Below are positions 46,334 through 64,000 of a stretch of 64,000 nt of DNA, one piece after another. The notes beneath the pieces are model-generated. The model worked only from the letters and a program-made list of their open reading frames with translations. It was not told where the DNA came from and made no database searches. Made by a program: the position numbers and the translations under genes. How positions within the stretch are numbered: the stretch's first letter is position 1; every line of letters begins with the position of its first letter. Where the stretch lies: assembly GCA_964016885.1 (NCBI GenBank), contig OZ024753.1, positions 31,000,001 to 31,064,000 on the forward strand, read 5' to 3'. Source of the DNA: Eledone cirrhosa. Lineage: Eukaryota.

Positions 46334-47590
46334 CTACATTTTAAATTTAAATTTATATTTAAACGTTGAGTTTAATCTATGTTTGCAACAACTGAATAAA
46401 TTTGTCCGTAGGTTAAGGGAATTTTTAGATTTTAGTATAAAGAATATCTCCTCTGCGCAGAGGTCACATGTCTCAGAGGATGAATTAAAAGGAATCCCTC
46501 TTGAGACTATATTCCAAGCCGTCGAATATCTAACGTTATCTAGCTTAAGTTGCCAGAGTACACCTGATAGTGCCGTTGAAGATTTTTTATTTGGATCTGT
46601 GAAAGAATTCTTGTGGTTATTATAGCGAAGTTTAAATTCCGTCGATGTGGAACCGACGTAGTTAAAAGAATTAGAGTCAGTATTAACATTACAATTGTAT
46701 ACTATATTTTTAACTAAGCAGTTGTTATTTAACGGACATTTAGATCTATCTCTACAGTTGCATTTGTTAACTTGTATATTATTTATGCTATTATCAGTAG
46801 TTTTTAAGTTCCTATTATTTATTCTATTAATATTTTGTGCTAAATTTTTGGTGGATGAATAGGTTAATTTAATTGTATGCCTATTGAAGATTGAGTGGTA
46901 CCTATGTGTTCTAGGGAAGCGATTATCAAGAGCTTTGAAAAATAATTTAGCGATGTGGGTTTTAATGTTTAGTGAGAAAGGGGGGGCAAACCAAATTATG
47001 TTCCTAGTTCTATTTCTTTTTTGTCCTTTGGAATTATTGTAATGCTTTCTATTATAGTTGTTAATGTTGTTGCCATAATTAAAAAAGTTGTTACTTTGTT
47101 TAGTTTGTTTATCATTATCTATGTACACAATCTTATCAGCATACCCTGCCCTAGCTAGTGCATCATTATAGTATTGGGCCTTTTCGTCAAAAATCTTTCT
47201 ATTCGACGAGATCCTAGAGATACGCTTTTGGACTGAGTTTACTATAGTGTTTTTGACAGATCTGGGGTGGTTAGAGTTAAAGTTGACATAGTTTAAGTTT
47301 TCATTCAACTTGTGAAAAGGATAGTGGAGACATGTGTTGAGATTTAATGTTATATCTAGGAAATTGACTATTCTATGGTTGTTCTCAATTTCTATTTTAA
47401 GGTTAAAGTAATTAAAAAATTTTGTAATTTGTTTACATTTTCTATTTAGTTCAGGGTTATTATTATTAATGAGTAAAAGCATGTCATCCCTATATAAACC
47501 TCCGGTAGTACCAGGTATTTTCCTATGTAGCGAATTGATTAAAAATAAGCCCACAAGGTCAGTTACTTGAGCTGAGTCGGAAGATCCCAT
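46334..47590 (-). pseudogene. 5'-truncated Naiad-like ORF (starts inside the RT)
   Basis: Identical to the C-terminal 418 aa of the full ORF; truncated at the inversion junction. Confidence 0.9.
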
Positions 47591-49166
47591 TCTTGACAGG
47601 GTGATACTGCAAATTAAGAACTTGGATTATGTATCTAACCTGAGCTTGTGGAAGGGAACCGGAGAGGTTGTTGAGTGGTTTAGGCAAATTAAATATGACA
47701 ATAATAATAGGTTTATTCAACTTGATATAGCTAACTATTATTCTTCTATTACCCCTAGTCTACTAAATAAGGCACTAAATTACGCATTCAAACATACGGA
47801 CCTAACTAGCAAAGAAATGCATATTATATTATCGGCTAGGAAAACTTTGATAGAATTTGATGACAAATTATGGACCAGAGCAGATAGAGATAGCAATTTT
47901 GACATAACTATGGGATCTTCCGACTCAGCTCAAGTAACTGACCTTGTGGGCTTATTTTTAATCAATTCGCTACATAGGAAAATACCTGGTACTACCGGAG
48001 GTTTATATAGGGATGACATGCTTTTACTCATTAATAATAATAACCCTGAACTAAATAGAAAATGTAAACAAATTACAAAATTTTTTAATTACTTTAACCT
48101 TAAAATAGAAATTGAGAACAACCATAGAATAGTCAATTTCCTAGATATAACATTAAATCTCAACACATGTCTCCACTATCCTTTTCACAAGTTGAATGAA
48201 AACTTAAACTATGTCAACTTTAACTCTAACCACCCCAGATCTGTCAAAAACACTATAGTAAACTCAGTCCAAAAGCGTATCTCTAGGATCTCGTCGAATA
48301 GAAAGATTTTTGACGAAAAGGCCCAATACTATAATGATGCACTAGCTAGGGCAGGGTATGCTGATAAGATTGTGTACATAGATAATGATAAACAAACTAA
48401 ACAAAGTAACAACTTTTTTAATTATGGCAACAACATTAACAACTATAATAGAAAGCATTACAATAATTCCAAAGGACAAAAAAGAAATAGAACTAGGAAC
48501 ATAATTTGGTTTGCCCCCCCTTTCTCACTAAACATTAAAACCCACATCGCTAAATTATTTTTCAAAGCTCTTGATAATCGCTTCCCTAGAACACATAGGT
48601 ACCACTCAATCTTCAATAGGCATACAATTAAATTAACCTATTCATCCACCAAAAATTTAGCACAAAATATTAATAGAATAAATAATAGGAACTTAAAAAC
48701 TACTGATAATAGCATAAATAATATACAAGTTAACAAATGCAACTGTAGAGATAGATCTAAATGTCCGTTAAATAACAACTGCTTAGTTAAAAATATAGTA
48801 TACAATTGTAATGTTAATACTGACTCTAATTCTTTTAACTACGTCGGTTCCACATCGACGGAATTTAAACTTCGCTATAATAACCACAAGAATTCTTTCA
48901 CAGATCCAAATAAAAAATCTTCAACGGCACTATCAGGTGTACTCTGGCAACTTAAGCTAGATAACGTTAGATATTCGACGGCTTGGAATATAGTCTCAAG
49001 AGGGATTCCTTTTAATTCATCCTCTGAGACATGTGACCTCTGCGCAGAGGAGATATTCTTTATACTAAAATCTAAAAATTCCCTTAACCTACGGACAAAT
49101 TTATTCAGTTGTTGCAAACATAGATTAAACTCAACGTTTAAATATAAATTTAAATTTAAAATGTAG
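47588..49166 (+). pseudogene. 5'-truncated Naiad-like ORF, inverted
   Basis: Identical to the C-terminal ~525 aa of the full ORF; begins at the junction CAT. Confidence 0.9.
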
Positions 49167-50273
49167 TATATTTAGTTTGACTTATATTTATATGAGAACT
49201 AGCCGATAAATCTTTTGATTCCTAAATCTTTGATTCCCTCTTTTTACTGTTTATTTTATTGTATTTATTTTTATTTTTATTGTATTTATTTTTATTTTTA
49301 TTTTTATTTTTATTTTTATCTAAACATTCCTCATGAAAAATTAAGCTACCCTAAAAGCCGATGCTCCAAATTTTATGAATTAACCTTACACTTGATAAAC
49401 TTATATATTAAATATAGGAACATATGTAGACATTATTGGACATCATAACCTTTTTTTTGCGATATTCCTTGCTAGATGTGATTTGATAGATAATTTTTGG
49501 CTTTGTCTTGTAGTGAACTTGGCAATATATTGTCAATTAACCTTGAAGGGTTGTTCTTTGTGGTTTATTTTTTATTTTTATTTTTATTTTTATTTTTATT
49601 TTTATTTTTATTTTTATTCTTTTAGTATTGTAGTATTCTATAATATTTTTATATTTTTATTTTTTATTTTTTATTTTATTTTATTTTTATTTTTAATATT
49701 TTTATATGTAAAGTTTTAATACGTAATAATTTTAAAACATAGTATTTTTAATATGCAATATTTTTATTATGTAATATTCTTTCGTAATATTCTTTTTTAG
49801 TTTTCTATTCTATATTTTTATATTTTTATATATTTTTACTTATTATCATTATTATTGTTATCTCTGCTTATAATATAATATATATTTTCGATTAGTATAT
49901 TGAAATCTGCTCTCTATTTCTGCTTGATAGATAATCTTGTAGAGTAATCGCAAGAATAATAATACGCTCAAATGTTTATACCACATTGAGAATGTTTTCC
50001 GGTAACTTTGAATTTGCGGAGTGAATCAGTTGGATTCACATAGACATATGAATTTTTTAAAAAACTAAACATAAGATAATGAATTTTCACGCATTGTGAA
50101 TACTTGTTTCATTCAGGAATACTGATATTTACAATATAGTGTAAGTTTTATAAATACTAATACATTAAAACATAGGGTTTTCTACGCCTCGAATATGTCT
50201 GGCTATTTTTAAATTTTTCTCTCTCTATATCTCTCTATATCTCTCTATATCTCCCTTACATTAATACTTGAGC

Positions 50274-50308
<35 letters not shown>

Positions 50309-50671
50309 ATGCATCATTGATACACTTACTCAAAATGACCTCCCACTACCTAATTTTTCTATATCTATATTTATATATGTATCTATCTCTATTTCCTCTC
50401 TCTATATATATATATATATCTCTTTCGGTCTCTTTACATGAAGCTCTTCGCTTTATCTATTTTTCCATCTCTCTATTTTGTCCCATGCATTTCTTCTTTT
50501 TCTTCTTTTTCTTCCTTTTCTTCGTTTCGTCTTTCTTTCTTTCTTATTTCCCTCTTTTCTCTCTCTCTTTCTTTCTCTCTGTATTTTCACTGCTAGAGTG
50601 AACCTCTTCAAATGAAGTTGATGTTTATTACGGTATGTCGAATATATTTATCTATAAAACTGTTTATATTG

Positions 50672-50737
50672 TATTTTGTCTGATGAAGGCATAGCATATT
50701 GTTAATATGATATCCCCGAAATATATATAATGAAATA
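50672..50737 (+). ncRNA. Hammerhead ribozyme in the Naiad pseudo-LTR
   Basis: tattttgt-CTGATGA-agg..catatt/aatatg..ccc-GAAA-tatata-TA-atgaaata; 180 nt upstream of the next ORF start. Confidence 0.8.
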
Positions 50738-50916
50738 AATATGGTTTTATAAATATAGTTTTCCATTTATTTAATATTGTAAATATACTCCAAGTATTTG
50801 TCGAGTGCTTTTATATCAGTTATAAATATTTACTAGTTGTAACCCAACAATTTTAAATATAACTTTACATGTTTCTTGCTCCAATACTGTTGAGCGCTTT
50901 ATATTATAACTGAAAA

Positions 50917-53130
50917 ATGGAATTCTTTAAGATTACTTCCTCTCTAAAAGACATACCTCTACCTAGAAACAAAGACTTTGTAAAACAACTAATAGATAAA
51001 TCTGACTCTTTTATAAGGAGAATCAGGTGGCGTGCATTCCACTTTGATAAATTTAATGCAGACGAAAATATCTCGGACTTAAACAAAGTTTTCAAATCTA
51101 AAAGAAATCCACCCCCTAACAAACTTTTATCTGACTTTGAAAACGATATAATTTCTATCATACAAGGGGTCAAATTCAAGAGAAACTTTAAAGGCCAGGA
51201 ATATCTGAAAGGCATTAAGGATAACATTGAGAGCTTAGAGAAAACTGAGAAGATCTTGGTGAAATCTGACAAGACCAACAACCTCTATGGAGTGCAGAAA
51301 GACATGTATAATGGCCTCATACTGAAAGAGCTGAGGAAAAAATACAAGGTAGCAGATAAGACCGAACTTGTGAAAATGAATGTTGAAGCATCTTGTATAA
51401 TGCATGAGTTGGAAATTGAGAACAGAACACAACCTTTTGTGCCCAGGAAACCGAAGATCAATATGAAGGACCACAAGAGGAATTTTGAGATTGACCTGCC
51501 AGTTAGATTAATCGCACCTTCAAAATCGGACCTGGGCAAATTAAGCAAAAACATTCTTGACAGGGTGATACTGCAAATTAAGAACTTGGATTATGTATCT
51601 AACCTGAGCTTGTGGAAGGGAACCGGAGAGGTTGTTGAGTGGTTTAGGCAAATTAAATATGACAATAATAATAGGTTTATTCAACTTGATATAGCTAACT
51701 ATTATTCTTCTATTACCCCTAGTCTACTAAATAAGGCACTAAATTACGCATTCAAACATACGGACCTAACTAGCAAAGAAATGCATATTATATTATCGGC
51801 TAGGAAAACTTTGATAGAATTTGATGACAAATTATGGACCAGAGCAGATAGAGATAGCAATTTTGACATAACTATGGGATCTTCCGACTCAGCTCAAGTA
51901 ACTGACCTTGTGGGCTTATTTTTAATCAATTCGCTACATAGGAAAATACCTGGTACTACCGGAGGTTTATATAGGGATGACATGCTTTTACTCATTAATA
52001 ATAATAACCCTGAACTAAATAGAAAATGTAAACAAATTACAAAATTTTTTAATTACTTTAACCTTAAAATAGAAATTGAGAACAACCATAGAATAGTCAA
52101 TTTCCTAGATATAACATTAAATCTCAACACATGTCTCCACTATCCTTTTCACAAGTTGAATGAAAACTTAAACTATGTCAACTTTAACTCTAACCACCCC
52201 AGATCTGTCAAAAACACTATAGTAAACTCAGTCCAAAAGCGTATCTCTAGGATCTCGTCGAATAGAAAGATTTTTGACGAAAAGGCCCAATACTATAATG
52301 ATGCACTAGCTAGGGCAGGGTATGCTGATAAGATTGTGTACATAGATAATGATAAACAAACTAAACAAAGTAACAACTTTTTTAATTATGGCAACAACAT
52401 TAACAACTATAATAGAAAGCATTACAATAATTCCAAAGGACAAAAAAGAAATAGAACTAGGAACATAATTTGGTTTGCCCCCCCTTTCTCACTAAACATT
52501 AAAACCCACATCGCTAAATTATTTTTCAAAGCTCTTGATAATCGCTTCCCTAGAACACATAGGTACCACTCAATCTTCAATAGGCATACAATTAAATTAA
52601 CCTATTCATCCACCAAAAATTTAGCACAAAATATTAATAGAATAAATAATAGGAACTTAAAAACTACTGATAATAGCATAAATAATATACAAGTTAACAA
52701 ATGCAACTGTAGAGATAGATCTAAATGTCCGTTAAATAACAACTGCTTAGTTAAAAATATAGTATACAATTGTAATGTTAATACTGACTCTAATTCTTTT
52801 AACTACGTCGGTTCCACATCGACGGAATTTAAACTTCGCTATAATAACCACAAGAATTCTTTCACAGATCCAAATAAAAAATCTTCAACGGCACTATCAG
52901 GTGTACTCTGGCAACTTAAGCTAGATAACGTTAGATATTCGACGGCTTGGAATATAGTCTCAAGAGGGATTCCTTTTAATTCATCCTCTGAGACATGTGA
53001 CCTCTGCGCAGAGGAGATATTCTTTATACTAAAATCTAAAAATTCCCTTAACCTACGGACAAATTTATTCAGTTGTTGCAAACATAGATTAAACTCAACG
53101 TTTAAATATAAATTTAAATTTAAAATGTAG
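50917..53130 (+). CDS. Naiad-like PLE protein, 737 aa, intact
   Basis: Same as 42370-44583 except KVADK vs KVTDK (position 51352). Confidence 0.92.
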   Translation: MEFFKITSSLKDIPLPRNKDFVKQLIDKSDSFIRRIRWRAFHFDKFNADENISDLNKVFKSKRNPPPNKLLSDFENDIISIIQGVKFKRNFKGQEYLKGIKDNIESLEKTEKILVKSDKTNNLYGVQKDMYNGLILKELRKKYKVADKTELVKMNVEASCIMHELEIENRTQPFVPRKPKINMKDHKRNFEIDLPVRLIAPSKSDLGKLSKNILDRVILQIKNLDYVSNLSLWKGTGEVVEWFRQIKYDNNNRFIQLDIANYYSSITPSLLNKALNYAFKHTDLTSKEMHIILSARKTLIEFDDKLWTRADRDSNFDITMGSSDSAQVTDLVGLFLINSLHRKIPGTTGGLYRDDMLLLINNNNPELNRKCKQITKFFNYFNLKIEIENNHRIVNFLDITLNLNTCLHYPFHKLNENLNYVNFNSNHPRSVKNTIVNSVQKRISRISSNRKIFDEKAQYYNDALARAGYADKIVYIDNDKQTKQSNNFFNYGNNINNYNRKHYNNSKGQKRNRTRNIIWFAPPFSLNIKTHIAKLFFKALDNRFPRTHRYHSIFNRHTIKLTYSSTKNLAQNINRINNRNLKTTDNSINNIQVNKCNCRDRSKCPLNNNCLVKNIVYNCNVNTDSNSFNYVGSTSTEFKLRYNNHKNSFTDPNKKSSTALSGVLWQLKLDNVRYSTAWNIVSRGIPFNSSSETCDLCAEEIFFILKSKNSLNLRTNLFSCCKHRLNSTFKYKFKFKM

Positions 53131-53985
53131 TATATTTAGTTTGATTTATATTTATATGAGAACTAGCCGATAAATCTTTTGATTCCTAAATCTTTGATTC
53201 CCTCTTTTTACTGTTTATTTTATTGTATTTATTTTTATTTTTATTGTATTTATTTTTATTTTTATTTTTATTTTTATTTTTATCTAAACATTCCTCATGA
53301 AAAATTAAGCTACCCTAAAAGCCGATGCTCCAAATTTTATGAATTAACCTTACACTTGATAAACTTATATATTAAATATAGGAACATATGTAGACATTAT
53401 TGGACATCATAACCTTTTTTTTTTTTTGCGATATTCCTTGCTAGATGTGATTTGATAGATAATTTTTGGCTTTGTCTTGTAGTGAACTTGGCAATATATT
53501 GTCAATTAACCTTGAAGGGTTGTTCTTTGTGGTTTATTTTTTATTTTTATTTTTATTTTTATTTTTATTTTTATTTTTATTTTTATTCTTTTAGTATTGT
53601 AGTATTCTATAATATTTTTATATTTTTATTTTTTATTTTTTATTTTATTTTATTTTTATTTTTAATATTTTTATATGTAAAGTTTTAATACGTAATAATT
53701 TTAAAACATAGTATTTTTAATATGCAATATTTTTATTATGTAATATTCTTTCGTAATATTCTTTTTTAGTTTTCTATTCTATATTTTTATATTTTTATAT
53801 ATTTTTACTTATTATCATTATTATTGTTATCTCTGCTTATAATATAATATATATTTTCGATTAGTATATTGAAATCTGCTCTCTATTTCTGCTTGATAGA
53901 TAATCTTGTAGAGTAATCGCAAGAATAATAATACGCTCAAATGTTTATACCACATTGAGAATGTTTTCCGGTAACTTTGAATTTG

Positions 53986-55271: not shown

Positions 55272-55699
55272 AAACATGGAACTACAACAAAACGCTTACA
55301 TTTCTTTTCAGAATAACTCTGCAATTAAAACCAATATAGTTGTGTGATTTTAATTTTTTATTTCCTTATTTGTATTTTTGAATCCCACCCCCACGTCCCT
55401 CCCTACTCAAAAGGTATCCATTTAAATAGTTATTAGTATTTCGTCTAAAATATTACAGCAGAGAACATTGAATCTATTTATGAGGGCGTTGTGGTCGAGA
55501 CCCAAAAGACGGAGTGTGCAAGCCGGACCTGTTCCACAGTTGTGTCTATAGATCTCATGTCTATAGATCTCATGTCATAAGATAATGACTTGGAACTGCA
55601 GATTATAATGACAACCATAGAAGTATGATTGATGTCGTATCACACACACATCATTGATAGCTTCAAGTAGGAGATAACAGGAACCTGGAGTCTATCAAG

Positions 55700-56545
55700 G
55701 AACGGAAGATAACAATAATACATCTCCACTCTTTCACAAATAGAAAACTAAGGCACTCCACTTCGCTCGCGGATTACATCACATCACTAAAGGACTTAAA
55801 CATCAGCTTCTCCACGCACTGGGAGATTGTCGGCAGGGCTGCACGTACAACTTCAAGAGGAAATGCGATCTTTGCCTAATGGAGCTCTACCACATCATAA
55901 CTGCACCCCACGAGCTCATCAACAGCAGAGCTGAAACAACGATAAGTTGTACACATCGCTTAAAAATATCCTTCTTTAGATGGGTTAAGAATGAAGAGTG
56001 AAATAGTACACTGGATCTCCCTGCAACAAGTCTTAACACCCCGGCGGGCAGGCGCAGCAAAATAACACCCAGAAAACAATCTTTGCATACCAGACCCAGC
56101 CTCAGACAAACGGATGCGGCAAAAAAAAAAAAAAAAATTTATCCGGGAAAGACTGCCCTAACACCGGCCAGAGTTACCTCCCTTGACCTGCTGCAAAATC
56201 AAAACAAGATATTTTTGCGAGCAATGAATCTTGATGTAGATTTAACCCCAAAACTCTTTCCGAACTATATAAGGAACACTTGTGATTATTTATGCCCTTG
56301 AGAAGCCCAACTGGGCGAAACGTACGTAGGTGATATTTTAAATAAACATGTTTTAACGGTCTATTCTCCGATTTTTTACTTTCCCACGTGCTTACGCTCT
56401 GCTAACTCTCTAGCCCACTAAATATTAACACTTCGAATATTTAATACTGCCGGCACTAGTATCGAGCACCTTTGGCATACGCTACTTGGCAAATAACTAT
56501 ATGTATCATCTATCCCTCCTTTTTCTCTCTTTCTCGATACGTAAA
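55700..56545 (+). mobile_element. Decayed second Naiad-like PLE (endonuclease C-terminus and 3' UTR)
   Basis: Hand translation HLHSFTNRKLRHSTSLADYITSLKD..STHWEIVGRA, frameshift, KCDLCLMELYHII..INSRAE..SCTHR aligns with the 737-aa C-terminus. Confidence 0.75.
56293..56332 (+). ncRNA. Variant-core hammerhead-like motif (CUUGAGAA)
   Basis: tgcc-CTTGAGAA-gccc-aact-gggc-GAAA-cgtacg-TA-ggtg then AATAAA. Confidence 0.6.
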
Positions 56546-56547
56546 TA

Positions 56548-56568
56548 CTATATATGTATATATATATG

Positions 56569-56644
<76 letters not shown>

Positions 56645-56906
56645 AATATATATGTATATATATGTATGTATATATATATATATATGTATATATGTATATG
56701 TATATATGTATATATATATATGTATATATATATATGTATATGTATATATATGTATGTATGTATATGTATATATATATATGTATATATGTATATGTATATA
56801 TATATGTATATGTATATATGTATATGTATATATGTATATATATGTATATATGTATATATATATATGTATATATGTATATGTATATATATATATGTATATG
56901 TATACA

Positions 56907-56945
<39 letters not shown>

Positions 56946-56950
56946 ATATG

Positions 56951-57024
<74 letters not shown>

Positions 57025-57051
57025 TTGTATATATATATATGTATATATATG

Positions 57052-57083
<32 letters not shown>

Positions 57084-57085
57084 TG

Positions 57086-57127
<42 letters not shown>

Positions 57128-57128
57128 G

Positions 57129-57159
<31 letters not shown>

Positions 57160-57244
57160 GTATATATATATGTATATATATATGTATATATGTATATATA
57201 TATATGTATATATATATGTATATATATATATGTATATATATATG

Positions 57245-57293
<49 letters not shown>

Positions 57294-57334
57294 GTATATA
57301 TGTATATATGTATATATATATATATGTATATATG

Positions 57335-57391
<57 letters not shown>

Positions 57392-57392
57392 G

Positions 57393-57445
<53 letters not shown>

Positions 57446-57766
57446 GTATATATATATATGTATATATATATGTATATATGTATATATGTATATATGTATG
57501 TATATATGTATGTATATATATATGTATATATATATATATATGTATATATATATACATGTATATATGTATATATGTATGTATATATGTATGTATATATATA
57601 TGTATGTATATATATATGTATATATATATATGTATATATATATATGTATATATATATATATGTATGTATATATATATGTATATATATATATATATGTATA
57701 TATATGTATATATATATATATGTATATATATATATCTGTATATATGTATGTATATATGTATATATG

Positions 57767-57797
<31 letters not shown>

Positions 57798-58015
57798 GTA
57801 TATATGTATGTATATATGTATATATGTATATATATATATATATGTATATATGTATATAGTATATATGTATATGTATATATGTATATATGTATATATGTAT
57901 ATGTATATATATATATATGTGTATATATATATATATGTATATATGTATGTATATATATATATGTATATATATATATATGTATATATGTATGTATATATAT
58001 ATGTATATATGTATG

Positions 58016-58047
<32 letters not shown>

Positions 58048-58167
58048 TATATATATGTATATATGTATGTATATATATATATGTATATATATATATGTAT
58101 ATATGTATGTATATATGTATATATATATATATGTAAATATATATATGTATATATGTATGTATATATG

Positions 58168-58262
<95 letters not shown>

Positions 58263-58310
58263 GTATATATATATATATGTATATTATATATATATGTATA
58301 TATATATATG

Positions 58311-58341
<31 letters not shown>

Positions 58342-58443
58342 GTATATATATATATGTGTAATATATATATATGTATATATATATATGTATGTATATATGT
58401 ATGTATATATGTATATATATATATGTATATATATATATGTATG

Positions 58444-58476
<33 letters not shown>

Positions 58477-58674
58477 GTATATATATATATGTATGTATAT
58501 ATGTATGTATATATGTATATATATATGTATATATATATATATGTATATATATATGTATGTATATATATATATATGTATATATATATAAATGTATATATAT
58601 ATGTATATATATATATATGTATATATATATTGGCGACTATATATGTATATATATATATATATGTATATATATAT
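56548..58674. repeat. (TA)n/(TATG)n array
   Basis: Direct reading. Confidence 0.95.
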
Positions 58675-59216
58675 TGGCGACTAAACTGGCAACCCCACCA
58701 AGGTTTCTTGGTGAGGAGGGTGACTTTGGACATCCTGCAGGACTAAAAGCTAAACCTGACAAAGGGCAAAGGAGCTCTTAAGAGTCAATGGCCATCCAAG
58801 ATCACCGGGAGAGATGACCCCTTAGCCTTTGTCAAGGCAGAATTCTAGGAGAAGGAAAACTCTGATATAACACCTGCAACCCTGATGGTATCCAATGATG
58901 TTGACTTGTTCTTCTTTTTGGTAAATATCATCTTGGTTAAGAGAGTGGGACTGGTTGTGTGCAGTGCCTTTGCTCACTATAAAAGTTTCACTGCACAGGC
59001 ATTGCTTTATATCTGGAGACCTCTCTGCACTTGTCGTCACATGGTACCATGCGCCCAGCACTATGTGTCAATAATTGTCACAAGTGTAGTGTTTGTACCA
59101 GAGGTTTCAAGTCGCTGGCTGGACTAAAAAGTCACACTCGTTCAGCGTATCGGTAGGGGTTCTCCTACATGGATATAAAGTAGTGGCCGTACTCGAAAAC
59201 GAGTTGGCAGCCACCA
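58675..59216 (+). mobile_element. Short RTE-like element with zinc-finger remnant and (ATGT)n tail
   Basis: [21 protein letters not shown]; end ggccgtactcgaaaacgagttggcagccacc resembles 8742-8770. Confidence 0.55.

Positions 59217-64000
<4,784 letters not shown>

Follow-up and report, generated by a model that had tools for sequence, protein, structure and literature searches.

Penelope-Like Elements in the Window

The window, that is the whole 64,000-nt stretch of DNA analyzed here, is eukaryotic and rich in (TA)n. It contains an element, referred to as family A, with a tandem unit of 3964-3969 nt and a 737-aa ORF that combines an RT with a C-terminal GIY-YIG-like nuclease. One full copy of this ORF, recognized from the ORF list and by alignment, lies at 50917..53130 on the plus strand, and a second full copy, different in one residue (44148 vs 51352), lies at 42370..44583 on the minus strand. 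Judged by the motifs listed in PMC8557442, family A is probably a Penelope-like element (PLE) of the Hydra clade. The invariant YRDD and IVY/YVG positions are kept in a 27-sequence alignment. Shared with the clade are the C-terminal nuclease, DKT in place of DKG (residues 118-120), RWx (RWR at 37-39, with R where the clade has K), the CxCX5C linker (C596, C598 and C604), and CxxC and CxH around a conserved E/N (C694, C697, E700, N712, C721 and H723). As in the clade, GxKF/Y is not conserved, with no G before FKS, and CCHH is missing, the second histidine pair being absent by eye. Also common to both are insertion into (TA)n, seen in family A at its left end (40753) while the right end lies in an assembly gap, and the PLE layout, in which a partial tandem (pLTR) lies beside an inverted copy truncated at its 5' end. 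Family A differs in its unit of ~3.96 kb, where the clade is generally below 3 kb (a tendency rather than a strict criterion), in RWR in place of RWK, and in the length of its inverted arm, 6.8 kb. The best named relative of the ORF is an Argonauta protein (39%). The viral sequence collection contained no relative. Pfam gave no match for the family A ORF or for two RT frames of a second PLE, family B (three of four proteins); a GIY-YIG match was obtained for family B.

Hydra-clade elements carry a canonical hammerhead ribozyme in the pLTR. In family A a motif scan located a hammerhead-like core there at 50680..50735 (plus strand), and two minus-strand copies lie at 44820 and 40854. The motif has no Rfam match, and its fold (z 0.23) is no better than that of shuffled sequences. 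Further hammerhead-like motifs occur at 36682 (minus) and 37929 (plus), where 37923-37967 is a weak Rfam hammerhead match (E 0.01); over the window Rfam otherwise returned only microsatellite miRNA noise. Family A has two alternative 3' ends, at ~50781 and 50866-50870, which enclose an optional tail (50782..50870, plus strand) defined by loose ends running into (TA)n in sequencing runs X1, X2 and X3 and by alignment. At ~85-89 nt this tail compares with 30-40 nt quoted for PLEs. Contigs of runs X3 and X5 pile up over 50622-50889 to a summed depth of >1 million, vs 5,000-70,000 over the ORF, which suggests a very abundant short pLTR derivative, although depth is not copy number. Runs X4 and X6-X11, with small word shares, were left out. 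A decayed fragment of another Hydra-like element occupies 55380-56548, and microsatellite tracts of 1.3-6 kb directly adjoin PLE ends (28254-30230, 39435-40752 and 56548-62500).

Family B is likewise arranged as two inverted arms, 30227-32266 and 32999-35038, with a loop of 732 nt. Its best match is an Octopus vulgaris protein (70%), which, with the Argonauta match of family A, makes an octopod host likely. Its CX4CxxC linker is Neptune- or Nematis-like by motif. The loop arm (30227..33006, minus strand) is 5'-truncated and ends in (TA)n without a tail, whereas the non-loop arm (32999..35038, plus strand) runs on into a 56-nt extension (35039..35094, plus strand) which is missing from the loop arm and has no other copy in the window. 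This extension is likely the tail of the element, with an ORF start and a frame open from the ATG at 35013. Its peptide aligns with the first positions of a profile built from the N-termini of 24 relatives, a region present in 24 of 256 proteins, but the similarity is weak: 6/1000 shuffles score as high against the profile and 25/1000 in pairwise comparison. A search for a closer N-terminus returned the query alone. Both arms carry the same premature stop.

The one-sided extension seen in two small families of the window is element sequence, as second copies show. Short inverted copies at 38964-39328 and 19490-19708, the latter with a 1-nt centre, belong to one small hammerhead-bearing family in (TA)n. 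Each bears a tail at one end but not at the other, and these ends fall at the same bases; the small element 38964-39254 was left out of the loop-arm assignment. Another small family has three copies (19242-19424, 19970-20097 and 13128-13264), the first of which is an inverted copy that is centred in a short hairpin and has a tail only on its right side. More palindromic or inverted elements, several of them between microsatellites, are found at 27809-28248, 35870-36265, 13795-14015, 5041-5265, 3576-3692, 25060-25240 and 4226-4659, and these may be MITEs or PLE fragments.

The Inverted Junction of Family A

A repeat finder placed the inverted arms of family A at 42076-47590 and 47910-53424, 319 nt apart, and gapped alignment carries the mirror symmetry out to 53986, where the N gap begins. 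The left, non-loop arm (40753..47590, minus strand) consists of a 5'-truncated unit and one full tandem unit, and its outer end is the short 3' end of the clade joined to (TA)n. The right, loop arm (47588..53985, plus strand) is built of tandem units of ~3964 nt, and its outer end is hidden by the gap. Between them, the 319-nt loop (47591..47909, plus strand; repeat finder and alignment) is RT-coding and present at this register only in the right arm. By exact extension, the left arm agrees with the full minus-strand copy as far as 47590, and the right arm, traced backwards, agrees with the full plus-strand copy as far as 47588. Since each arm fails at the very next base, the overlap is exactly CAT (47588..47590); the 325 nt of 47588-47912 show 0 differences from both full copies. 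Arms, overlap and loop are thus as a sequence-only reading of the locus had described them. The native context across the right-arm start (joint 51551 to 47588) is present in contigs of runs X1 and X2, which confirms it outside this assembly.

The arms differ by two substitutions and one poly-T length change in ~6080 nt, with no difference in the inner 3.4 kb (poly-T lengths are 8/8 inside and 10/13 outside). This insertion is recent, given so few differences. The 5' reach of the two arms differs by 319 nt only, in ~7 kb. We rejected the use of arm differences in families A and B as proof of two sources, because they are too few and later mutation explains them; the sequence-only reading had held that distinguishable source copies, if frequent, would speak against self-priming, and such copies are indicated in one related locus, discussed below.

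Such a junction might be no product of retrotransposition, but an assembly or library fold-back chimera, or the result of later repair through a deletion between opposed copies or a fold-back at a break. A near-perfect 6-kb palindrome that adjoins an assembly gap fits this suspicion, and none of four sequencing runs lists a strand-change joint here, though these runs possibly come from other individuals or species and are uninformative either way. On the other hand, the left arm halts in (TA)n where the element ends, and the flanks show no mirror symmetry. Each arm also carries a substitution of its own (at 53145 the base is unlike that of three other copies, and at 51352 the right-arm base is retained in an X1 contig), which argues against one molecule assembled twice, and the same layout recurs in the second PLE family of the window and in loci from other animals. 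We regard an artefact or repair origin as highly unlikely. The junction is real, and its head-to-head inverted layout is already known for PLEs (PMC8557442, PMC2377424 and PMC3846280).

Junction Geometry, Pairing and Microhomology

The sequence-only reading took the junction for a direct footprint of cDNA self-priming. In such a snap-back, a right-primed cDNA would fold back until its last ATG pairs with the CAT that lies 325 nt upstream in the same cDNA. It would then be copied outwards, and the new strand would stop or be cut at the short 3' end and be joined to the left target end. The geometry fits this route exactly, the arms are near-identical and share the same tandem register, and snap-back junctions are reported for R2 insertions (PMC11371274). 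Pairing energetics speak against it. Among the 21 CAT sites that lie no more than 1.5 kb from the cDNA end, the one used ranks 6th in proximity, and the free end prefers partners at 8-44 nt over one at 325 nt. With DNA parameters for naked DNA at 15-37 C, the end pairs at this register with a probability of 1e-10 to 1e-13; a bare 3-bp closure amounts to +3.0 to +5.5 kcal/mol, and forced pairing carries a penalty of 16-19 kcal/mol. These values weaken snap-back without excluding it, because a polymerase could stabilise such a pair. The palindrome at 19584-19708, with its 1-nt centre, is too tight for a priming hairpin. An overlap of at least 3 nt is expected by chance with P = 0.080 when loops of 20-1000 nt are considered across the unit, and with P = 0.064 when the junctions are confined to the ORF. 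The CAT of family A alone is not beyond chance. With a free cDNA end that does not favour this register and an overlap that chance produces in ~8% of cases, the term direct footprint does not hold.

We identified 93 related loci, picked for long ORF matches, and followed 12 of them. Both outer ends are readable in five (L028, L084, L088, L090 and L092), three are cut by contig ends (L048, L059 and L079), and four were dropped as complex or unresolved (L078, L080, L089 and L091), with L080 and L091 being more complex multi-inversion copies. The 15 contigs L079-L093 come from prokaryote genome records and encode Hydra-like PLEs; they are likely animal host DNA in bins.

Enrichment of microhomology over many inverted junctions had been proposed as a check of self-priming. 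Runs X3 and X5, which represent one sample, contain three distinct opposite-strand joints of family A with overlaps of 2, 0 and 4 nt (orientation not given). Elsewhere the overlap is 2 nt in L084, at least 5 nt in L079 (as deduced from protein motifs) and 1 nt in the palindrome 19584-19708, and the family B junction has imperfect homology, with six of eight bases complementary at 32999-33006 (null 0.004). Microhomology is unreadable in L028, L048, L059, L090 and L092, which have no native reference, and L088 was entered as 0 in cautious sums. Tests on the sum of overlaps gave p = 0.016 with the family A junction, 0.047 without it, 0.013 with L079 and 0.10 for the least favourable set. A modest enrichment among the gathered junctions is likely, as the proposed check anticipated, but it cannot separate snap-back from the joining of two cDNAs, because both routes predict the same junction. 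One junction of L092 shows ~105 nt (7272-7376) unlike the expected ORF.

Outer Ends of Inverted Copies

The two routes can be compared at the outer ends. The optional tail of family A has a counterpart in the related loci, where the distance from the hammerhead core to the microsatellite is bimodal: among 39 such ends in the 93 loci, some of which represent other families or repeats of one family, 23 lie at 38-107 nt, 16 at 126-180 nt and none between. In the main locus, L088, L092, L028 and L084 (five of six readable Hydra-type inversions), the inverted arm stops short of a conserved tail motif by 20-29 nt, and in the sixth, L090, it ends at the long 3' end. Inverted arms thus stop at usual 3' ends in all six cases, which favours two separately primed cDNAs. 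In L088, L092 and L028 the loop arm continues at least 60 nt beyond the point where the inverted arm stops, and a polymerase copying it therefore had more template, yet stopped at the usual end. Snap-back needs an extra step to account for such stops. Copying might be stalled by a stem that the tail forms directly beyond the short end, or the endonuclease might trim at that point; the tail is ascribed to EN resolution in PMC8557442.

The distribution of tails is less favourable to two primings. In the three asymmetric Hydra loci (L088, L092 and L028) it is always the loop arm that bears the tail, and in L090 and L084 both ends or neither do, as snap-back allows; in all five loci the non-loop arm holds nothing beyond its template. 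We also considered a leader-follower arrangement, with the tail always on the non-loop arm, and rejected it since these three asymmetric loci show the opposite. As a candidate target-site duplication, a 9-nt repeat flanks L088 but lies inside a microsatellite, and the main locus is flanked by the gap and (TA)n.

Family B and L079 point the other way. In family B, the non-loop arm has 56 nt that are absent from its supposed template; should these be the tail, they could not have arisen by snap-back from the left arm. The premature stop common to both arms nevertheless points to one template, as snap-back would have it. In L079, 468 codons compared between the arms show 63 synonymous and 22 non-synonymous differences, and the arms probably represent two source lineages joined over at least 5 nt, which snap-back cannot yield; this is a metagenome contig and could be a chimera. 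Loops range from 319 to 1970 nt overall (721-1970 nt in the related loci, inflated by selection for long ORFs and by short-read assembly), and such a range, with no thermodynamic pull to the observed register, also favours two cDNAs. As the right end of the main locus lies in the assembly gap, snap-back retains a place there, but taken together we judge it a rather unlikely origin of the family A junction.

Two-Ended Priming as the Preferred Reading

We lean towards the reading in which both (TA)n target ends prime a cDNA from the element 3' end and the tips are joined via CAT, and consider it somewhat probable for the head-to-head form of family A. The nuclease would nick both strands of (TA)n, and each target 3' end would prime reverse transcription at one of two start sites, with either a single RNA or two RNAs from one source array as template. 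The two cDNAs would stop 319 nt apart and pair via CAT/ATG, and fill-in may be carried out by the RT or by a host end-joining polymerase. The main locus directly contributes the two arms, the 3-nt overlap, and a left end at the usual short 3' end in (TA)n. Joining of two cDNAs by microhomology had been named in the sequence-only reading as a rival to self-priming, and it is this rival to which the end structure of family B and the related loci leans.

Purified PLE protein from the anole system, a related clade, cuts and extends both target strands, uses two start sites bracketing the tail and is predicted to form a dimer, according to PMC11167929. In L1 twin priming, two cDNA ends extended by the RT are end-joined by microcomplementarity and their lengths are correlated (10.1101/2024.08.27.596794 and PMC11702581). 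Several observations count against two cDNAs. The family A arms are not distinguishable as sources, with the same tandem register and near-equal reach, and the shared stop in family B is a pointer to one template; shared sequence can be reconciled with two primers, since both cDNAs may come from one source array or from one RNA read twice. The hidden right end of the main locus, the tail on the loop arm in the three asymmetric loci, the weak protein similarity behind the family B tail and the possibly chimeric L079 weigh on the same side.

Self-priming as an idea for PLE inversions was already published in 2013, on antisense RNA (PMC3846280). In that proposal, drawn from palindromes at inverted junctions and from intron retention, a putative antisense transcript would here fold at CAT and prime a sense cDNA, with a junction identical to that of snap-back. 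It shares with our case the head-to-head inverted repeats and a tail on one inverted end, but involves antisense RNA and short junction palindromes, where we see a 319-nt loop, a 3-nt overlap and ends that lean to two primers. It meets the same trouble with family B and L079, and the in vitro reaction of PMC11167929 is target-primed synthesis on sense RNA from two sites. The chance that family A arose in this way appears very remote.

Two further systems resemble the preferred two-cDNA joining or its main rival. L1 twin priming also has two target 3' ends that prime two cDNAs meeting by microcomplementarity, but the second primer starts inside the RNA and the arms are different segments, whereas here both arms reach the element 3' end and form a palindrome. 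R2 snap-back, in which the 3' end of a cDNA primes synthesis on that same cDNA, has the same junction geometry; it was described in an engineered system (PMC11371274), and there the copied part cannot be longer than its template, whereas here one non-loop arm appears to do so.

PMC8557442 names the formation of tandem and inverted PLE insertions as open, and PMC11167929 describes what follows first-strand synthesis as unvalidated. Neither counts of microhomology at PLE inversions nor a two-ended priming model for them turned up in a literature scope that left out most subscription papers, including PLE reviews of 2005 and 2006 which may hold such a model. The family A junction alone adds little here. 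A sharper genomic test than counts of microhomology would score the tail-bearing arm, the position at which the inverted arm stops and whether both arms come from one source, and the genome behind the window, rich in young PLE inversions, is suited to such an end-based test. More generally, PLE inversions could be the normal product of two-ended target-primed reverse transcription, in which a dimer primes both strands from two 3' start sites and the cDNAs meet by microhomology; we offer this generalisation tentatively, with a little more doubt than trust. If true, two-ended priming would account at once for the inverted arm, for a tail on one side only and for the absence of a separate second-strand primer.
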